Origin: a virus
Taxonomy: Duplodnaviria; Heunggongvirae; Uroviricota; Caudoviricetes
DNA length: 39,483 nucleotides
Strand: one strand, 5' to 3'
Virus record (IMG/VR): IMGVR_UViG_2563366928_000012
Coordinates: 1-39,483 of that record
Shown in pieces: positions 3,950-33,730 of the stretch. The notes beneath the pieces are model-generated. The model had not been told where the DNA came from and ran no database searches. It was given only the letters and a program-made list of their open reading frames with translations. The translations under genes and the position numbers were made by a program. The first letter of the stretch is position 1, and each line of letters starts with the position of its first letter.

Positions 3950-4011
3950 GTTGGTTTTTCTCCACGGATTTACTGACAACCGAAGCCCTGACTGTTCCCG
4001 CAGTTGGGGCT

Positions 4012-4215
4012 TCAACTTTCTGATCTATCAGTTATATCTTTCCCTTCATATACTTCACCTATATTGCTAATGCTGGCAGAACATCCAAGATGCTTGTATC
4101 TTATGATGTCCAACACGCAGTCACTACACAGCATCCGACCTGTTTCTTTAGAGTAAATGTATGTTTGATCAGCGTCTGATTCGCTAATGCCGCAGAAACA
4201 ACATTCTTTACTCAT
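4012..4215 (-). CDS. Small Cys-rich (zinc-ribbon-like) protein inserted between arc and ant
   Basis: 67 aa with CCFCG, CSDC and a further Cys. Start ATG overlaps the arc stop (ATGA), suggesting translational coupling. Confidence 0.45.
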
Positions 4216-23167: not shown

Positions 23168-23243
23168 TGGTGCTGGTTAACGGACTTGAACCGCTACCCA
23201 TTCGCTTACAAGGCGACTGCTCTACCATTGGAGCTAAACCAGC
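23168..23243 (-). tRNA. tRNA, anticodon UGU (Thr) by hand fold
   Basis: 76 nt cloverleaf: acceptor GCTGGTT/AACCAGC, D-stem GCTC/GAGC, anticodon loop CTTGTAA, T-loop TTCAAGT, encoded 3' ACCA. Confidence 0.6.
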
Positions 23244-23248
23244 ATGTT

Positions 23249-23323
23249 TGGCGGGACAGCGTGGACTCGAACCACGATAAGAAGGTTAACAGCCTTCCGT
23301 AATGACCTTTATACGACTGACCC
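23249..23323 (-). tRNA. tRNA-like, anticodon GUU (Asn) by hand fold, imperfect stems
   Basis: 75 nt: anticodon stem GAAGG/CCTTC, loop CTGTTAA, T-arm CGTGG-TTCGAGT-CCACG, 3' GCCA; one acceptor-stem and one D-stem mismatch. Confidence 0.45.
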
Positions 23324-25564: not shown

Positions 25565-25701
25565 AGGTGAGCCGTGTAATTGAAGGTTTTAACGTCAGAT
25601 TCTTTTGGGATTGGCCTGGGTTTATTTCTGGAACGTTTCGTTGGAAGGTAATTGCAGTTTTCACAGATTATGTCGGTGAAACTTCGTCGCTGTCGCCTCA
25701 T
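25519..25701 (-). CDS. ninE: NinE
   Basis: From [60 protein letters not shown], matches recalled lambda NinE. Confidence 0.8.
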
Positions 25702-26144
25702 GCCGCCCTCCCTGTTCGTTGTGACCATTCATACTCTCGCCGGGAGTCATCACTCCACCGCACGTTGCGCTCTGAGCCGAACCAGAACATGATTTCGATA
25801 AGCTCAGTCATGCTGGCCTTTCGCATTTTGCTGGTACGCACGCCAAGCATAACAACGCCACCGTCGATACCAGGCGCACTTCGTTGCTCCAGTTTTTTGG
25901 TCTTAAGCCACAGGGCAGTGAACAGATCTTTCCAGTCCTCCGGCGCAAGTCTCTCTCCATGCCAGAGCACCTGACGCGATACGTCCTGCAATAACGCCCA
26001 CATAAGGCGGTTTTGAGGATTGCTCCGCTTTGGTTCTTTAATGTGGACTTCGTGAGGTGACTTGTCGTCGATCGGAAGTGAGAGTATTGCGTCTATGGCG
26101 TTGTTTCTGATTGCTTCGTTGCGAAGCATGTATATTGGCTTCAT
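25698..26144 (-). CDS. ninB: NinB (Orf-family recombination mediator)
   Basis: Position upstream of ninE; start taken at [11 protein letters not shown]. Confidence 0.65.
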
Positions 26145-26151
26145 CGTTACC

Positions 26152-26346
26152 TCAACTAACAAAACGCCACGCCATTTTTGCTACAGCGACAGGCATAACA
26201 CCGATAATCACCCAGACAAATGCAGCGCCAAACAACGTATACCATGGGTCTTTACCGTCATTCACAAGACGAATGTAGCTATGCAGAACAATAAAAAACG
26301 TCAGAAGAATCCATCCAACGCCAACGCATTTGAGTGCGACGAGCAT
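26152..26346 (-). CDS. Small two-helix membrane protein
   Basis: About 64 aa from internal ATG (MLVALKCVGVGWILLTFFIVLH...), two hydrophobic segments. Confidence 0.4.
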   Translation of the reverse strand: MLVALKCVGVGWILLTFFIVLHSYIRLVNDGKDPWYTLFGAAFVWVIIGVMPVAVAKMAWRFVS

Positions 26347-26370
26347 AAACTCAGCCACGATTTACTCTCC

Positions 26371-26405
26371 CCCAAATAAAAAGGCCTGCGATTACCAGCA
26401 GGCCT
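26371..26405 (-). terminator. Hairpin plus U-tract downstream of helicase gene
   Basis: AGGCCTGC-TGGTAATC-GCAGGCCT then TTTTTATTTGG on the minus strand; lies inside a 27-codon hydrophobic mini-ORF starting right after the helicase stop. Confidence 0.45.
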
Positions 26406-26434
26406 GTTACAAGCTCAGTGATGTAGATGGTCAT

Positions 26435-28315
26435 TTAATACTCCGTCACGTTTTCCTGTCGCCACGCCTCGTCATATTCCGATTTCGGCATATTGGCGAT
26501 GTAGCTATATGGCGATCCTGATTCAAGTTGCAGGAACTGGTGCGATTGCTCGTCAAGGAACAACGGGACACCACCTTCCCAACCTTCGCCGTTACGTTGT
26601 TTTTCAAGCATCAAAACAGATGCCGGAGATGCCAGTAGCTGTTCGTCCTTCTCTGACATCTTTTCACCACTCTGAACTCTCTGTAACGCTCTCTCGCGAG
26701 CCTTGTTACGCCAGATGATGAAAAGGTTGTCTGTCAGGTCTGTTATCGCTCCAGAGCCTTTTACGTCCATTTTCCCGGTTGGTTTTTCTTCGCTGTCTCC
26801 TTTTCGCGAGTGAGTAACGAGAATGACGTGGGAGTTTGTTTTGTTTTTGAAGTCGCAAATCGAGTCAACAAACGCCTTCTGCCCGTTATAGTCATCGTCG
26901 CCTATGCCACATTTCATCAGGCTGTCGATGATGAATAACTGGATCCCGTATCGGCGGCGAGCGTAGTCGAATATTTCGATCAGCCTGTCGGCTTTCGCCG
27001 TTCCGGTCAGGCCAAACACCCAAAGTCTTTCGTCATAAAATTTAAATGCAGAGTCAATTTCCAGCACTGGCGGCATCTTGCAGCACGTCGCCTGACGGGT
27101 AAGGCGCTTAAGGAGAATACCAGGCTTCAGCTCAAGTGACGCGATGCACGTCTTCACACCCTGACGCATTGCCTCAAGTGCCATATGCCCGACAACCTCC
27201 GTTTTTCCGTGACCGTTCACACCATTGACCAGCGTCAACTCTGCCTCACGGAACTGGAATTTATCTGCCAGAGATTCCCACGGTGGATTAAACAGATATT
27301 GCTGCTTGCCGTAGAAAGCGTTGATAGTGTCCTGGTAAAACTCTCGCGCGCTGTAGAGTTCTTCAGGATCGAAGTAGGATGCCGTGCCGATGTACTGCCA
27401 GATTTCATCCTCGGTAACACCGTTCATCAGGCATTCGTTGATGTCTTTGTACGGCAGAGTAACAAGACGGCAACGATGTTCACCGAGTCGGCTTGCGATT
27501 TCCCTTGCGGCTTCACGACCAACATCATCAACGTCCATCGAGATGAATATTTCCTCAAACCTGTCGAGGTTGTGATACTCAAACTCAATCCACTGTTGCT
27601 TAGCGCCTTTCCCGCCACCAAACGGCACGGATAACGCCGAGATGCCGTATTGCGCATAGCTCATACAATCAATTTCGCCTTCGCAAAGCACAACCGCCCT
27701 CACGCCAGCGTCCAGAGCCTGCCATCCGAACAGGCAAGGTTCGCAATCACCTTCTGCCATAATGACTTTCTTCCCGTCCTGGCGCTCAGTGCTGATTCGC
27801 TTGACCTGCAACAACTCACCATCGCGTTTGTACGGAATCACCAGAGCATCCAGTTCCCGCTCTCCATTCCACACCTTGCCGCTGACAACCTCGTAGCGCT
27901 TTACGATTTCTGGCGATATGCCACGCGATTGCAGGTACTCAAGATGGGATTCTGTTCTGGTAACGTAGCGGGCGATTTTCTTGCGATCAGGTCTGGAGAA
28001 TTTCTTCTCACGTCTGGCATCGAAATGGTGATCGTCATCCTTGATACCGAGAAATGCTTTCGCTTCCTGCATAGCCTGATGCAGGTTAATTCCACGACAT
28101 GCCATCCACAAATCAAGCATGTCACCGCCGTCTCCCTCAGCGAAATCAGCCCATTTTTTCTTGCCGCTAAGGTTGACCTTAAGGCTGTTTCCCTTGTCAC
28201 CGTTGACGTTACCGGCAACCCACTCATGCCCCTCTTTCTTGCCGTTTGGCAACAGGTGTGGAGCCACCCTGTCAACCTGCGCCCAAAGCAGGTCACTGAG
28301 TTCACTTGGCGTCAT
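26435..28315 (-). CDS. Replicative primase-helicase (TOPRIM primase fused to DnaB-like P-loop helicase)
   Basis: 626 aa; Walker A-like GVNGHGKT in C-terminal half, primase-like N-terminal half; sits downstream of the O-like initiator. Confidence 0.7.
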   Translation of the reverse strand: MTPSELSDLLWAQVDRVAPHLLPNGKKEGHEWVAGNVNGDKGNSLKVNLSGKKKWADFAEGDGGDMLDLWMACRGINLHQAMQEAKAFLGIKDDDHHFDARREKKFSRPDRKKIARYVTRTESHLEYLQSRGISPEIVKRYEVVSGKVWNGERELDALVIPYKRDGELLQVKRISTERQDGKKVIMAEGDCEPCLFGWQALDAGVRAVVLCEGEIDCMSYAQYGISALSVPFGGGKGAKQQWIEFEYHNLDRFEEIFISMDVDDVGREAAREIASRLGEHRCRLVTLPYKDINECLMNGVTEDEIWQYIGTASYFDPEELYSAREFYQDTINAFYGKQQYLFNPPWESLADKFQFREAELTLVNGVNGHGKTEVVGHMALEAMRQGVKTCIASLELKPGILLKRLTRQATCCKMPPVLEIDSAFKFYDERLWVFGLTGTAKADRLIEIFDYARRRYGIQLFIIDSLMKCGIGDDDYNGQKAFVDSICDFKNKTNSHVILVTHSRKGDSEEKPTGKMDVKGSGAITDLTDNLFIIWRNKARERALQRVQSGEKMSEKDEQLLASPASVLMLEKQRNGEGWEGGVPLFLDEQSHQFLQLESGSPYSYIANMPKSEYDEAWRQENVTEY

Positions 28316-28422
28316 GATTCCCTCAGATTGAGATTTTTAAACCAGAAATCGACAAACGAAATACTTAACCAGCCGTGGTTATAACCAGCGACCAGTAGCG
28401 ATTTGATTTTTGATTTCATGGT

Positions 28423-29283
28423 TCACCTGTCGAAAAACACGTAGCCAGTTTTCGATACGGTGATTGCGGATGATGGTTTGGATTGTGGTTGAATAGTTTC
28501 TGGCTTCTCGTCGTTCCAGCGTTGACCGTTCAGGTAGCTCGATGGTAACAACCTGTCGAATCCGAACTGCTTACCATTCCTGCATGCGATGTCTTCTGCC
28601 AGCATCGTGGCAAACTCGCTTGCCGTACCCCTGGTAGTTTTACGCCATTCCCTGAACTGTGTTCTGAATGCCGAAGCTGCGTTTTTCTTCCCGGCCTTCC
28701 GCATGCCTGCACACCAGAATATTTCCTCGAATGCCTTGTCGGTTTCTTCGTGACGGTCATGTGATTTTTCACACTCCGTCCGAACACTTTCGGACATAGT
28801 GTTTTTATTATTTCTTTTTTCTTTTGTAATAGTTTCTTTTGTGTGTCCCTGTTTTGGTGACAGCGCTGTCACCGTTTTGGTGACACTTTTTGTCACCAAT
28901 GCAGTGACATTATCACCAGAGTAGTGACACCCTTCGTTTTGCCATTCCTCGATGTTCTTGTTAGGCCCGATTTGCTGGCCTTCGCGAAGGATAACCTTCA
29001 TCGCGATAAGCTCATTCTTGGCCTTGTTTACCTTCTGTCTTGGCAGCCTGGTAATTTGAGCTAACTGACTATCAGAGATGCGATCCATATTTTTACCGTA
29101 GCCGTATGTTTTACGGCATATGGCGTGGGCAACCTTGCTCTGATTTTTCGTTAAATCTGCGCCGATAAGCTCTTCATACAGGGCATTTGCAAGACGGGTA
29201 TAACCATCTTCAACTTCTGCCACACGACGCTCCACAGGCCGTTGTGAAGGCCTTAAATGTGTTACGGTTGCAAGATTACTCAT
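28423..29283 (-). CDS. Replication initiator, lambda O-like N-terminal domain
   Basis: [47 protein letters not shown] resembles lambda O N-terminal domain; iteron array embedded in the coding sequence. Confidence 0.75.
28800..28930. repeat. Origin of replication: GGTGACA-type iterons plus adjacent AT-rich tract
   Basis: TTTTGGTGACAGCGCTGTCACCGTTTTGGTGACACTTTTTGTCACCAATGCAGTGACATTATCACCAGAGTAGTGACACCC next to a T-rich stretch, inside the O-like gene. Confidence 0.7.
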
Positions 29284-29454: not shown

Positions 29455-29754
29455 TCAGAACTCCATCTGGATTTGTTCAGAACGCTCGGTCTTGCACACC
29501 GGGCGTTTTTTATTGGTGATTCCATCAAGCGCATACTTAAAAGCCCTGCTAATCGGACTGATGTCTGATGCCATTCCGAAAGCACACAAGACCGAAGCAA
29601 TAAATCTCCAGTCCGTTCTGCTTATCTTCGATTCATGACAGCCAATCATCTTTGCCAGACCGCGCTGGGTAAGCGTTGACAGGTTGATGAGTAAATCCGT
29701 TTCTGCGCGATCAACGTCGCGCTGGGATAGTTTGCTGTAACTTGTTTGTGTCAT
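29455..29754 (-). CDS. cII: CII transcriptional activator
   Basis: C-terminus [20 protein letters not shown] matches recalled lambda CII C-terminus. Confidence 0.8.
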
Positions 29755-29840: not shown

Positions 29841-29885
29841 CGCTTTTCAGCGACGTAGGACGAATGTCCGTTGTTACAAAGAGCG
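29841..29885 (-). promoter_or_regulatory. nutR-like site (boxA plus boxB)
   Basis: Minus strand: boxA CGCTCTTTG (29877-29885), then boxB hairpin TCGC-TGAAAA-GCGA (29841-29852). Confidence 0.55.
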
Positions 29886-29895
29886 GATCCGCTTA

Positions 29896-30111
29896 TTAAG
29901 CGGCTTTGTGTTCCGGCGGGAACACGTCATCAAGACTGACTTTTGCGCCTAACTTGTTTAGGCATGCAACAAGAGCACGGCATGTTTTAAGGTCTGGGAA
30001 GCGACGACCAGATTCCCAATGTCCGATAGCTCCCTGTGTGCATCCAACTGCCTTAGCAAGTGTTGTTTGAGAGATATTCAGTGACTCTCGATATTTTCGT
30101 AGGTTGCTCAT
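29896..30111 (-). CDS. cro: Cro-like HTH repressor
   Basis: 71 aa with HTH (ISQTTLAKAVGCTQGAIGHWESG), divergent from cI. Confidence 0.75.
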   Translation of the reverse strand: MSNLRKYRESLNISQTTLAKAVGCTQGAIGHWESGRRFPDLKTCRALVACLNKLGAKVSLDDVFPPEHKAA

Positions 30112-32519: not shown

Positions 32520-32565
32520 GCTCTTTAAACAACGTCGACTCTCGACTACGTGGCTGAAAAGCCAG
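32520..32565 (+). promoter_or_regulatory. nutL-like site (boxA plus boxB)
   Basis: boxA GCTCTTTAA (32520-32528), then boxB hairpin TGGC-TGAAAA-GCCA (32551-32564), upstream of N. Confidence 0.55.
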
Positions 32566-32662: not shown

Positions 32663-32935
32663 ATGTCCAGAAAAACAGAATTTAAAGGCACCGCAGCTTC
32701 TCGCCGTAGAGCTCGTCGCGCAAATCTGCAAAGTCAGGAGGCGATCAGCTCCGACAAGCTACACAGGCCAACCCCTTCACGAGTGGTCTTGCAATGCAAG
32801 CGCAAACCAGCAATGAGAGCAGAAGTAATAACACTGACAACGTTGACCAGAAAATATGAAGGTTCAACTTGTCTTCCGAACGTAGCTCTTTACGCGGCAG
32901 GCTACCGGAAATCCAAACAACTGACAGCAAGATGA
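32663..32935 (+). CDS. N: Antiterminator N (P22 gp24-like)
   Basis: Arg-rich motif GTAASRRRARRANLQ near N-terminus; C-terminus NVALYAAGYRKSKQLTAR matches recalled P22 N tail; GGAGG RBS. Confidence 0.75.
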   Translation: MSRKTEFKGTAASRRRARRANLQSQEAISSDKLHRPTPSRVVLQCKRKPAMRAEVITLTTLTRKYEGSTCLPNVALYAAGYRKSKQLTAR

Positions 32936-33528: not shown

Positions 33529-33589
33529 ATGCATACCAATAACGCTTCACTCGAGGCGTTTTTCGTTATGTATAAATAAGGAGCACACC

Positions 33590-33730
33590 ATGCAATATGC
33601 CATTGCAGGGTGGCCTGTTGCTGGCTGCCCTTCCGAATCTTTACTTGAACGAATCACCCGTAAATTACGTGACGGATGGAAACGCCTTATCGACATACTT
33701 AATCAGCCAGGAGTCCCCAAAAATGGATAA
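33590..33730 (+). CDS. Small hypothetical protein
   Basis: 46 aa (MQYAIAGWPVAGCPSESLL...), TAAGGAG RBS. Confidence 0.4.
   Translation: MQYAIAGWPVAGCPSESLLERITRKLRDGWKRLIDILNQPGVPKNG

Follow-up and report, generated by a model that had tools for sequence, protein, structure and literature searches.

In the present study, we analysed a window of 39,483 nucleotides (nt), the whole of a tailed virus record of the class Caudoviricetes (IMG/VR IMGVR_UViG_2563366928_000012), and show that a short open reading frame (ORF) overlapping a terminator hairpin downstream of its replication genes is very probably the ninA/tR2 module of lambdoid phages, with tR2 as the terminator, N-dependent read-through and ninA as a translational linker. 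Judged by its sequence, the hairpin is tR2, the experimentally characterised intrinsic terminator of phage lambda. The combination of ninA and tR2 is already known and is ordinary for lambda-like phages, and nothing about it is new; its value as a discovery is small, since few intrinsic terminators have been studied as much as tR2 and ninA has been annotated for decades. The features on which the argument draws are collected in Table 1.

Table 1. Features of the ninA/tR2 locus and components of the putative N antitermination system in the window.
Feature	Position	Strand	Details and basis
ninB (Orf-family recombination mediator), next in the nin chain	25698..26144	-	phrog_72; PF05772 NinB, E 6.6e-48
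68-aa gene, two hydrophobic helices	26152..26358	-	phrog_1165, E 1.6e-39, full length
ninA ORF, 27 codons + stop	26351..26434	-	MTIYITELVTGLLVIAGLFIWGRVNRG; ORF list; phrog_5907
Shine-Dalgarno motif of the 68-aa gene	26365..26373	-	GGGGGAGAG; within ninA codons 21-24, directly 3' of the U-tract
tR2 intrinsic terminator	26374..26405	-	terminator scan; folding; identity to lambda NC_001416
tR2 hairpin	26405..26382	-	AGGCCTGC-TGGTAATC-GCAGGCCT; terminator scan
Primase/helicase gene, 626 aa	26435..28315	-	ORF; phrog_239, E 1.5e-171
GGAG Shine-Dalgarno motif, 6 nt 5' of the ninA ATG	26441..26444	-	sequence
nutR-like site, pR rightward early transcript	29841..29885	-	boxA CGCTCTTTG 29885..29877; boxB CGCTGAAAAGCG 29852..29841
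nutL-like site	32520..32563	+	boxA GCTCTTTAA 32520..32528; boxB GGCTGAAAAGCC 32552..32563
N-like antitermination gene, 90 aa, arginine-rich N-terminus	32663..32935	+	phrog_271 'anti-termination protein N-like', E 4.3e-25

On the minus strand, the genes of the window follow one another in the order cro, cII, O, primase/helicase, ninA/tR2, a gene for a protein of 68 amino acids (aa) and ninB, the last starting at ATG 26144. The primase/helicase carries Toprim_2 and AAA_25 domains above the Pfam cut-off and DnaB_C below it. Its stop codon, TAA (26437..26435), abuts the ninA start codon, ATG (26434..26432), in a TAAATG junction, exactly as had been noticed earlier. The original prediction of a 27-codon mini-ORF and a terminator hairpin between the helicase gene and a small membrane protein gene is thus borne out, on the minus strand; the span it gave for the ORF, 26346-26435, does hold one but is slightly padded, the exact limits being 26351..26434 with a TGA stop at 26353..26351. 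The strand of the ORF and hairpin had been left unstated.

The stem of the hairpin (arms 26405..26398 and 26389..26382) consists of 8 bp, 6 of them G-C pairs, and closes a loop of 8 nt (26397..26390), with a U-tract, TTTTTATTT (26382..26374), directly 3' on the minus strand. Its folding energy is -15.1 kcal/mol, and the central pair probability was 0.995-1.0 in every context tried. Hairpin and U-tract are base for base those of lambda tR2, located between ren and ninB (NC_001416) and removed by the nin5 deletion, and are also identical in P22, Sf6 and HK620, while the 34-nt tR2 oligonucleotide of Li et al. 2015 (PMC4824070) matches positions 26408..26375 of the minus strand exactly (AACAGGCCTGCTGGTAATCGCAGGCCTTTTTATT). 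This identity supports the earlier view of the hairpin as a real terminator gating transcription into the nin region. The hairpin starts 30 nt 3' of the ninA AUG and 29 nt 3' of the helicase stop. Folded as a whole, the 111-nt region was no more stable than shuffled sequences (z = -0.37), so only the hairpin itself is informative; terminator-like sites were not enriched in the scan (7 found versus 4.3 expected), and Rfam gave no match at the ninA/tR2 locus.

The resemblance to lambda extends to the orientation of tR2, to its overlap with ninA and to its place in the rightward early operon, where it separates the replication genes from the nin genes. At the same time, the surroundings differ: the upstream gene is the primase/helicase here and ren in lambda, and the downstream gene encodes the 68-aa membrane protein here, whereas in lambda it is ninB. 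Within ninA, two bases 5' of the hairpin, in codons 8-9, differ from lambda, and the tail of the peptide reads GRVNRG rather than GRGKS.

By analogy with lambda, from which both the termination efficiency and the N-dependence are transferred, read-through of tR2 in this phage is most likely controlled by N antitermination. We propose this reading because the window holds an N-like gene together with boxA/boxB nut sites on both early transcripts. Lambda tR2, preceded by its natural 28-nt upstream sequence, terminates with an efficiency of ~0.9 (Li et al. 2015, PMC4824070). In the present phage, tR2 would stop most of the unmodified RNA polymerase arriving from pR, downstream of the replication genes, and polymerase modified at nutR by the N-like protein would pass the terminator into the 68-aa gene, ninB, the other nin genes and Q. 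For annotation, the analogy would thereby assign to this terminator the N-dependence of nin and Q expression in a P22-like phage.

The ninA ORF is the first 3' of the replication genes, and the hairpin occupies its codons 10-18. Short ORFs are common in this region (4.5 kb hold 75 that encode 20 aa or more), so chance could by itself produce an ORF of 27 codons. The ORF matches phrog_5907, covering positions 1-26 of the 27-position profile (E 1.1e-18), and its peptide is 100% identical to HK620 NinA (AAK28874.1), with no difference. The same family, which is represented by UniRef Q9AZ16 (that of the HK620 peptide), Q38675 and K7PHM1, comprises the NinA peptides of HK620, P22, lambda and phage 21. 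Up to the tail, identity is 23/23 with P22 NinA and 22/23 with lambda NinA; beyond that point, the difference from the peptide encoded in the window is confined to the final 3-4 residues, which depend on how the following gene begins. In GenBank, ninA and terminator tR2 are annotated at the same position in HK620 and Lahn2, P22 has ninA and a terminator without a name, and Sf6 has gene 45, 'similar to phage 21 NinA', with terminator tR2. Neither Pfam nor NCBIfam has a family for NinA, and PGAP leaves the gene unannotated in E. coli genomes; automatic annotation thus routinely misses ninA, even though about one in three complete E. coli genomes (1977/5426) carries the element.

ninA is a recognised gene that is probably translated, and its translation does look to be under selection. 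Of 7 unrelated upstream gene ends, 6 carry a core Shine-Dalgarno tetramer 5-10 nt 5' of the ninA ATG (background frequency, 4.7%), and 85 of the 92 distinct variants have the start of the next gene at -11..+9 nt relative to the ninA stop. In the proposed scheme, ninA would be translated from an AUG that abuts the helicase stop and has a Shine-Dalgarno motif of its own, with its stop overlapping the next start and its last codons containing the Shine-Dalgarno motif of the next gene. Given this coupling of starts and stops and the placement of the motifs, the most likely role of ninA is that of a short translational linker by which ribosomes cross the terminator on read-through transcripts. In RNAs terminated at tR2, the ninA ORF lacks a stop codon.

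The ninA/tR2 pair is conserved across hundreds of phages as an island of ~70 nt that is about 90% or more identical between them. We collected its copies by degenerate DNA patterns, one for the N-terminal codons and one for the hairpin. The set obtained with the N-terminal pattern, which allowed mostly synonymous changes, is unfit for a coding-constraint test of codons 1-11, and constraint on these codons was therefore judged from the hairpin-anchored set, which overlaps heavily with the former. Among the matches listed in the hairpin-anchored set, the ATG and the N-terminal codons are kept in 121 of 127, and the variant types comprise 8 synonymous and 5 conservative non-synonymous ones. For the hairpin and tail codons, the matches listed contain ~4 synonymous versus 8 non-synonymous variant types, which indicates weak constraint at the peptide level; they include Leu13Gln, changes of Trp21 to Leu, Cys or a stop, and a few frameshifts. 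Scanning species-representative genomes added little, 15 of the 22 matches being lambda DNA contamination.

Three different stems occur at the same place, with folding energies of -15.1, -12.6 and -14.1 kcal/mol. In HK97 gp56 and CUS-3 'ninA' (32 aa), the first 11 codons, the position, the frame and the location of the hairpin inside the ORF are as in the window, but the stem (GGGGCTAT/GTAGCCC, -12.6 kcal/mol) is not homologous pair by pair and the tail is longer and acidic. With the L083 type of hairpin, the ORF is continuous and in frame with the next gene. Between the HK97-type and L083-type stems there is one compensatory change, from U-A to C-G, which, like the recurrence of a stem at this place, is in keeping with selection on the hairpin. 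A pair-by-pair covariation analysis of the lambda-type and HK97-type hairpins was dropped, since the two stems are out of register, which points to replacement and not to compensatory drift.

What the island is conserved for admits several readings. Pairwise identity is 0.89-0.98 over ninA nt 0-59 and 0.71 over nt 60-79, as opposed to ~0.4 immediately on either side; the island joins at least 7 unrelated types of upstream gene to at least 10 types of downstream gene; Megablast homology begins exactly at the ninA ATG regardless of the upstream gene; the Sf6 record labels the island 'bsq6; boundary sequence'; and an endonuclease-like gene was found inserted within it. All of this would fit an island maintained mainly as a recombination 'boundary sequence' for the reassortment of replication and nin modules, with the ORF as a passive passenger. 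We regard this as rather unlikely: it leaves unexplained the Shine-Dalgarno motif that each unrelated upstream sequence supplies, as well as the different hairpins at the same place and the compensatory change, and it offers a reason for DNA conservation rather than an alternative to the terminator function. The conserved Shine-Dalgarno motifs equally bear on the notion of a chance reading frame over the terminator that is not purposefully translated. The abundance of short ORFs, the omission of ninA by PGAP and the weak constraint in the hairpin part agree with such a frame, yet the motifs recur in 6 of the 7 independent contexts, the ninA start adjoins or overlaps the stop of the gene before it, the ninA stop overlaps the start of the gene after it, and the lambda NinA start site is experimentally active, 'not weak' (Li et al. 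2015, PMC4824070), all of which makes a chance frame very unlikely. A functional small membrane peptide, the other option raised in the original prediction, with the tR2 overlap as genuine dual coding, would be compatible with the terminator role and is suggested by several observations: 88 of the 92 distinct variants retain an ORF of 24-32 codons, Shine-Dalgarno motifs are conserved across unrelated contexts, variation in codons 2-10 is biased to synonymous changes (matches listed, hairpin-anchored set), mean hydropathy is 1.0-2.3 over 15-aa windows with a basic C-terminus, and the HK97/CUS-3 type, with its other stem, again encodes in the same frame a hydrophobic core followed by charged residues. 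However, the terminator largely dictates the hydrophobicity, since Phe, Ile and Leu come from the U-tract codons and Gly, Leu and Ala from the GC stem, and the peptide may be a mere by-product of coding the GC-rich stem and U-tract. Leu13Gln in several lineages and the Trp21 variants, premature stop and frameshifts (all among the matches listed), the tail that varies with whichever gene follows, and the missing Pfam or NCBIfam family also speak against a functional peptide, as do the dispensability of the whole nin region for plaque formation and the construction of a P22 lysogen with ninA-ninH deleted. On balance, such a function is unlikely.

The original prediction had offered a translation-coupled attenuator. 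In such a device, hairpin formation would depend on a ribosome that is translating ninA or completing the helicase gene, and the amount of read-through into the nin region would follow from it. Ribosomes can indeed repress tR2 strongly: with a stop codon 5 nt upstream, the efficiency falls from ~90% to <10%, and the interference reaches roughly 27-30 nt (PMC4824070), a limit to which the helicase stop, at 29 nt, is close. The hairpin also lies inside an ORF that is probably translated. Nevertheless, silencing the lambda NinA ribosome-binding site or AUG shifts tR2 efficiency by only ~10%, translation lowering the efficiency, and a stop codon 28 nt upstream of lambda tR2 permits ~90% termination (PMC4824070). 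The RNA structure prediction that had been suggested as a check reveals no alternative folds: no upstream segment competes for the 5' arm, and the local structures available before the 3' arm is made reach only -5.6 to -7.1 kcal/mol and do not compete with the hairpin. Attenuators of the leader-peptide type (trp, his, pyrBI) likewise place a short translated ORF beside an intrinsic terminator in an operon, but here there is no antiterminator hairpin, the peptide has no run of regulatory codons, and the terminator sits inside the ORF, only 30 nt from the AUG, and not after a leader stop. With a dedicated N/nut system in the window besides, attenuation by translation is very unlikely, and we favour N-dependent read-through with ninA as the linker.

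A smaller point is the reason for which ninA translation is maintained, with Shine-Dalgarno motifs kept in unrelated upstream genes. Conceivably, translation is itself selected, so that a single 70-nt sequence would serve both as a terminator and as a translated ORF: RNAs ended at tR2 would be non-stop messages cleared by tmRNA, and the peptide would be made only after N. Hybrid lambda-immP22 phages are tmRNA-dependent. Were this reading, which we consider quite improbable, to hold, non-stop decay would reduce the stability of replication-gene messages that arise in the absence of N, and the 27-aa membrane-directed peptide would come from read-through transcripts alone, after the action of N.

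Finally, the 68-aa protein gene downstream (phrog_1165) is real and conserved. The earlier description of a gene at 26152-26346 encoding a two-helix membrane protein stands as regards the gene and its two helices, but, to judge from the sequence, GTG 26358 is a better candidate for its start than ATG 26346: Salmonella homologues have ATG at the position of the GTG, and GGGGGAGAG lies 6 nt upstream. Fixing this probable start is of use for annotation; the GTG overlaps the ninA stop in GTGGCTGA. Contrary to the earlier impression that the protein has no counterpart at this position, phrog_1165 members separate ninA from the nin genes further downstream in HK620 (where the neighbour is ninB), H-19B, Stx phages and P22-like Salmonella phages, and are often left without annotation. 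Pfam and NCBIfam contain no family for the protein. It has two hydrophobic segments and falls into three subtypes, whose dN/dS of 0.19-0.54 between them indicates constraint at the protein level, and its exact sequence occurs on ~1000 contigs.

The hydrophobic 27-codon ORF that opens on the minus strand directly behind the primase/helicase gene is ninA, and the hairpin and U-tract within it are the lambda-type terminator tR2. The original prediction of a mini-ORF starting right after the helicase stop and containing a terminator hairpin holds, with the ATG being the very next base after the TAA and a GGAG motif lying 6 nt upstream; only its boundaries had been padded by a few bases and its strand left unstated. 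The hairpin has a folding energy of -15.1 kcal/mol, and its central pair forms with a probability of 0.995-1.0 in folds with 77, 107 or 147 nt of context.

Megablast with the 421-nt region matched 395 phage records, several of which name both components. In HK620 (AF335538), the same 84-nt ORF is labelled 'ninA, similar to P22 NinA' and the hairpin 'terminator tR2'; the P22-pbi record carries 'NinA protein' and 'terminator', that of Sf6 gene 45 'similar to phage 21 NinA' and 'terminator; homology to phage lambda; tR2', and that of Lahn2 'ninA' and 'tR2'. The encoded peptide has exactly the sequence of HK620 NinA (AAK28874.1; UniRef Q9AZ16 'NinA protein') and matches phrog_5907 (E 1.1e-18). Hairpin and U-tract are identical to those of P22, Sf6, HK620, H-19B and, read side by side, lambda, where they lie between ren and ninB, and positions 26408..26375 (minus) exactly match the 34-nt oligonucleotide used as 'the well-studied lambda terminator tR2' by Li et al. 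2015 (PMC4824070). A search of 5426 complete E. coli genomes located the element in 1977, with 5 copies at most in a single genome, and the automatic pipeline leaves ninA uncalled there despite its presence. Given these annotations, identities and counts, the module is already known and very common. Where these genomes match window positions 26345-26440 exactly, RefSeq lists just two products, a toprim-domain protein and the hypothetical protein of 68 aa.

Features of the early region and its surroundings, with coordinates in the window
Feature	Coordinates	Strand	Remarks
lambda cIII thermoregulator element	33577-33635	plus	Rfam match
N-like antiterminator gene	32663..32935	plus	phrog_271, E 4.3e-25
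nutL-like site	boxA 32520..32528; boxB 32552..32563	plus	boxA GCTCTTTAA; boxB GGCTGAAAAGCC
cro-like gene	30111..29896	minus	
nutR-like site	boxA 29885..29877; boxB 29852..29841	minus	boxA CGCTCTTTG; boxB CGCTGAAAAGCG
cII-like gene	29754..29455	minus	
O-like gene	29283..28423	minus	
35-aa ORF	28312-28419	minus	between O-like gene and primase/helicase; phrog_21848, E 4.4e-26
primase/helicase, 626 aa	28315..26435	minus	phrog_239; Toprim and AAA_25 domains; DnaB_C match weaker, below Pfam cut-off
primase/helicase stop TAA	26437..26435	minus	
ninA ORF	ATG 26434; stop TGA 26353..26351	minus	MTIYITELVTGLLVIAGLFIWGRVNRG
tR2 hairpin	26405..26382	minus	within ninA; AGGCCTGC-TGGTAATC-GCAGGCCT
tR2 tail	reaches 26374	minus	TTTTTATTT; directly 3' of hairpin
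motif	26373..26365	minus	GGGGGAGAG; immediately after tR2 tail
68-aa ORF	GTG 26358 to 26152	minus	start overlaps ninA stop in GTGGCTGA
terminator-like site	26297-26322	minus	inside 68-aa gene
two tRNA genes	23171-23243, 23252-23323	minus	downstream of nin region; Rfam matches
sar antisense RNA (P22 immI region)	3950-4017	plus	Rfam match

A translation-coupled attenuator had been proposed for this arrangement. RNA folding of the ninA/tR2 region found no alternative fold competing with the terminator hairpin: until the 3' arm has been made, the 5' arm pairs only weakly and locally (-5.6 to -7.1 kcal/mol), and from then on the terminator hairpin prevails. The reporter experiment suggested along with that proposal has in effect already been done on the identical lambda element (PMC4824070). 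There, tR2 located behind a translated gene, with 28 nt of its native upstream sequence in between, terminates with an efficiency of ~0.9, which falls below 10% when the stop codon is shifted to 5 nt before the hairpin. The authors graded the NinA start site 'not weak', because the non-stop transcripts cut expression of the upstream reporter by half. Silencing the NinA RBS or AUG shifted termination efficiency by only ~10%; in their explanation, 30 nt from the AUG is too short a distance for a ribosome to catch up with the polymerase (PMC4824070). The helicase stop in the window lies 29 nt 5' of the hairpin, and lambda differs at two bases in the 30 nt between them, so that by analogy tR2 of the window would be expected to respond to translation as that of lambda does. 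With no alternative fold, and with the lambda results carried over to the window, control by translation as an attenuator is not supported.

The ORF itself nevertheless bears marks of selection, as judged from two sets of IMG/VR variants. One, anchored on the N-terminal codons and hence unbiased for the hairpin, holds at least 130 matches (77 distinct 110-mers); the other, anchored on the exact hairpin and unbiased for the N-terminus, holds at least 127. The ATG and MTIY(I/V)(T/S)EL(I/V/M)(T/A) are kept in 121 of the 127 hairpin-anchored matches listed, among which codons 2-10 show eight synonymous and five conservative non-synonymous variant types. Five of the six exceptions among these matches carry an endonuclease gene between ninA codon 11 and the hairpin, and the sixth lies too near a contig end to be judged. 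The inserted gene (locus L018, 6334-7080; also L136) is AT-rich and encodes a 203-aa HNH/AP2-like endonuclease-type protein; at these loci, the first 11 ninA codons now open a new 34-aa hydrophobic ORF, and tR2 stands directly 3' of the inserted gene's stop. Peptide-level constraint in the hairpin and tail codons is weak, since the N-terminus-anchored matches listed show ~4 synonymous against 8 non-synonymous changes there, among them Leu13Gln and the replacement of Trp21 by Leu, Cys or a stop, as well as a few frameshifts.

At the hairpin's position, three different stems are found: the lambda type (-15.1 kcal/mol), the HK97/CUS-3 type (GGGGCTAT/GTAGCCC, -12.6 kcal/mol) and a third type (GGGGCCAC/GTGGCC, -14.1 kcal/mol; locus L083), which differs from the HK97 type by a compensatory U-A to C-G change. 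The reading frame is the same in the lambda and HK97 types, and in the third the ORF reads on, in frame, into the gene that follows. The ninA ATG directly adjoins or overlaps the ends of seven unrelated upstream genes (ren, two DnaB-like helicases, the primase/helicase of the window and three others), and six of these contexts place a core Shine-Dalgarno 4-mer 5-10 nt before the ATG (background, 4.7%), the seventh having AAGGGG. Downstream, 85 of 92 distinct variants have an ORF of at least 40 codons whose start lies -11 to +9 nt from the ninA stop, through ATGA, GTGA, GTGGCTGA or TAAATG junctions. These features provide sequence-based evidence for selected translation of ninA and fit the description of the lambda nin region as a 'chain of interlinked genes' that later papers credit to Kroger and Hobom (1982), suggesting that ninA is a translational linker.

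The module also marks a mosaic boundary. Across 129 distinct ATG-anchored 700-mers, mean pairwise identity is 0.89-0.98 over nt 0-59, with conservation of the first 32 nt being partly a product of how the set was collected and the hairpin part unbiased; it is 0.71 over nt 60-79 and ~0.4 directly on either side. The N-terminal conservation is confirmed by the hairpin-anchored set. The sequence types joined by this island number at least 7 on the upstream side and at least 10 on the downstream side, in agreement with the Sf6 record, which labels the site 'bsq6; boundary sequence'.

The neighbouring gene had been described as encoding a two-helix membrane protein lacking a recognisable counterpart at this position; the two helices stand, and the counterpart is phrog_1165 (E 1.6e-39), commonly placed after ninA. 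No Pfam or NCBIfam family was found for the protein. The 37 copies among the loci compared fall into three subtypes, all with two hydrophobic helices and an R-L-V-x-x-G-K-D linking loop, with dN/dS of 0.19-0.54 between subtypes; the protein is widespread and under purifying selection. About 1000 contigs carry the exact sequence, under no name other than 'hypothetical' or 'phage protein', and the gene, although real, is unannotated in the HK620 and H-19B records. It probably starts at GTG 26358, where Salmonella versions have ATG, rather than at ATG 26346. The terminator-like site inside it (9 pairs, 3 G-C only, then TTTTATTGTT) is probably a chance match, given the background rate of the terminator scan.

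The minus-strand order is cro-like, cII-like, O-like, primase/helicase, ninA/tR2, 68-aa gene and ninB, with a cI-like repressor gene on the plus strand, and both early transcripts carry boxA and boxB pairs. The phage is P22-like, as seen from its Lederbergvirus relatives, sar RNA and cIII thermoregulator element. Most likely, tR2 would act as an intrinsic terminator overridden by N antitermination, and the short, probably translated ninA ORF superposed on it would link translation of the replication genes to that of the nin genes.

ON470605.1 (phage vB_EcoP-720R6, L002), the record most closely related to this part of the window, has a ninA tail whose G-run is longer by one G, shifting the frame, and a primase/helicase broken into two CDS; both are probably sequencing errors in the record. 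Fifteen assemblies of non-enterobacterial organisms, all species-representative genome contigs (L156, L159, L161-L167, L169, L170, L174-L176), carry sequence here that matches phage lambda base for base. Among the organisms are Pseudomonas, Oceanobacillus, Bradyrhizobium, Psychrobacter, Pseudoxanthomonas, Shewanella, Nocardioides and Chromatium; several of the contigs have low coverage and a length of about 48.4-48.5 kb, and the sequence looks like lambda DNA contamination.
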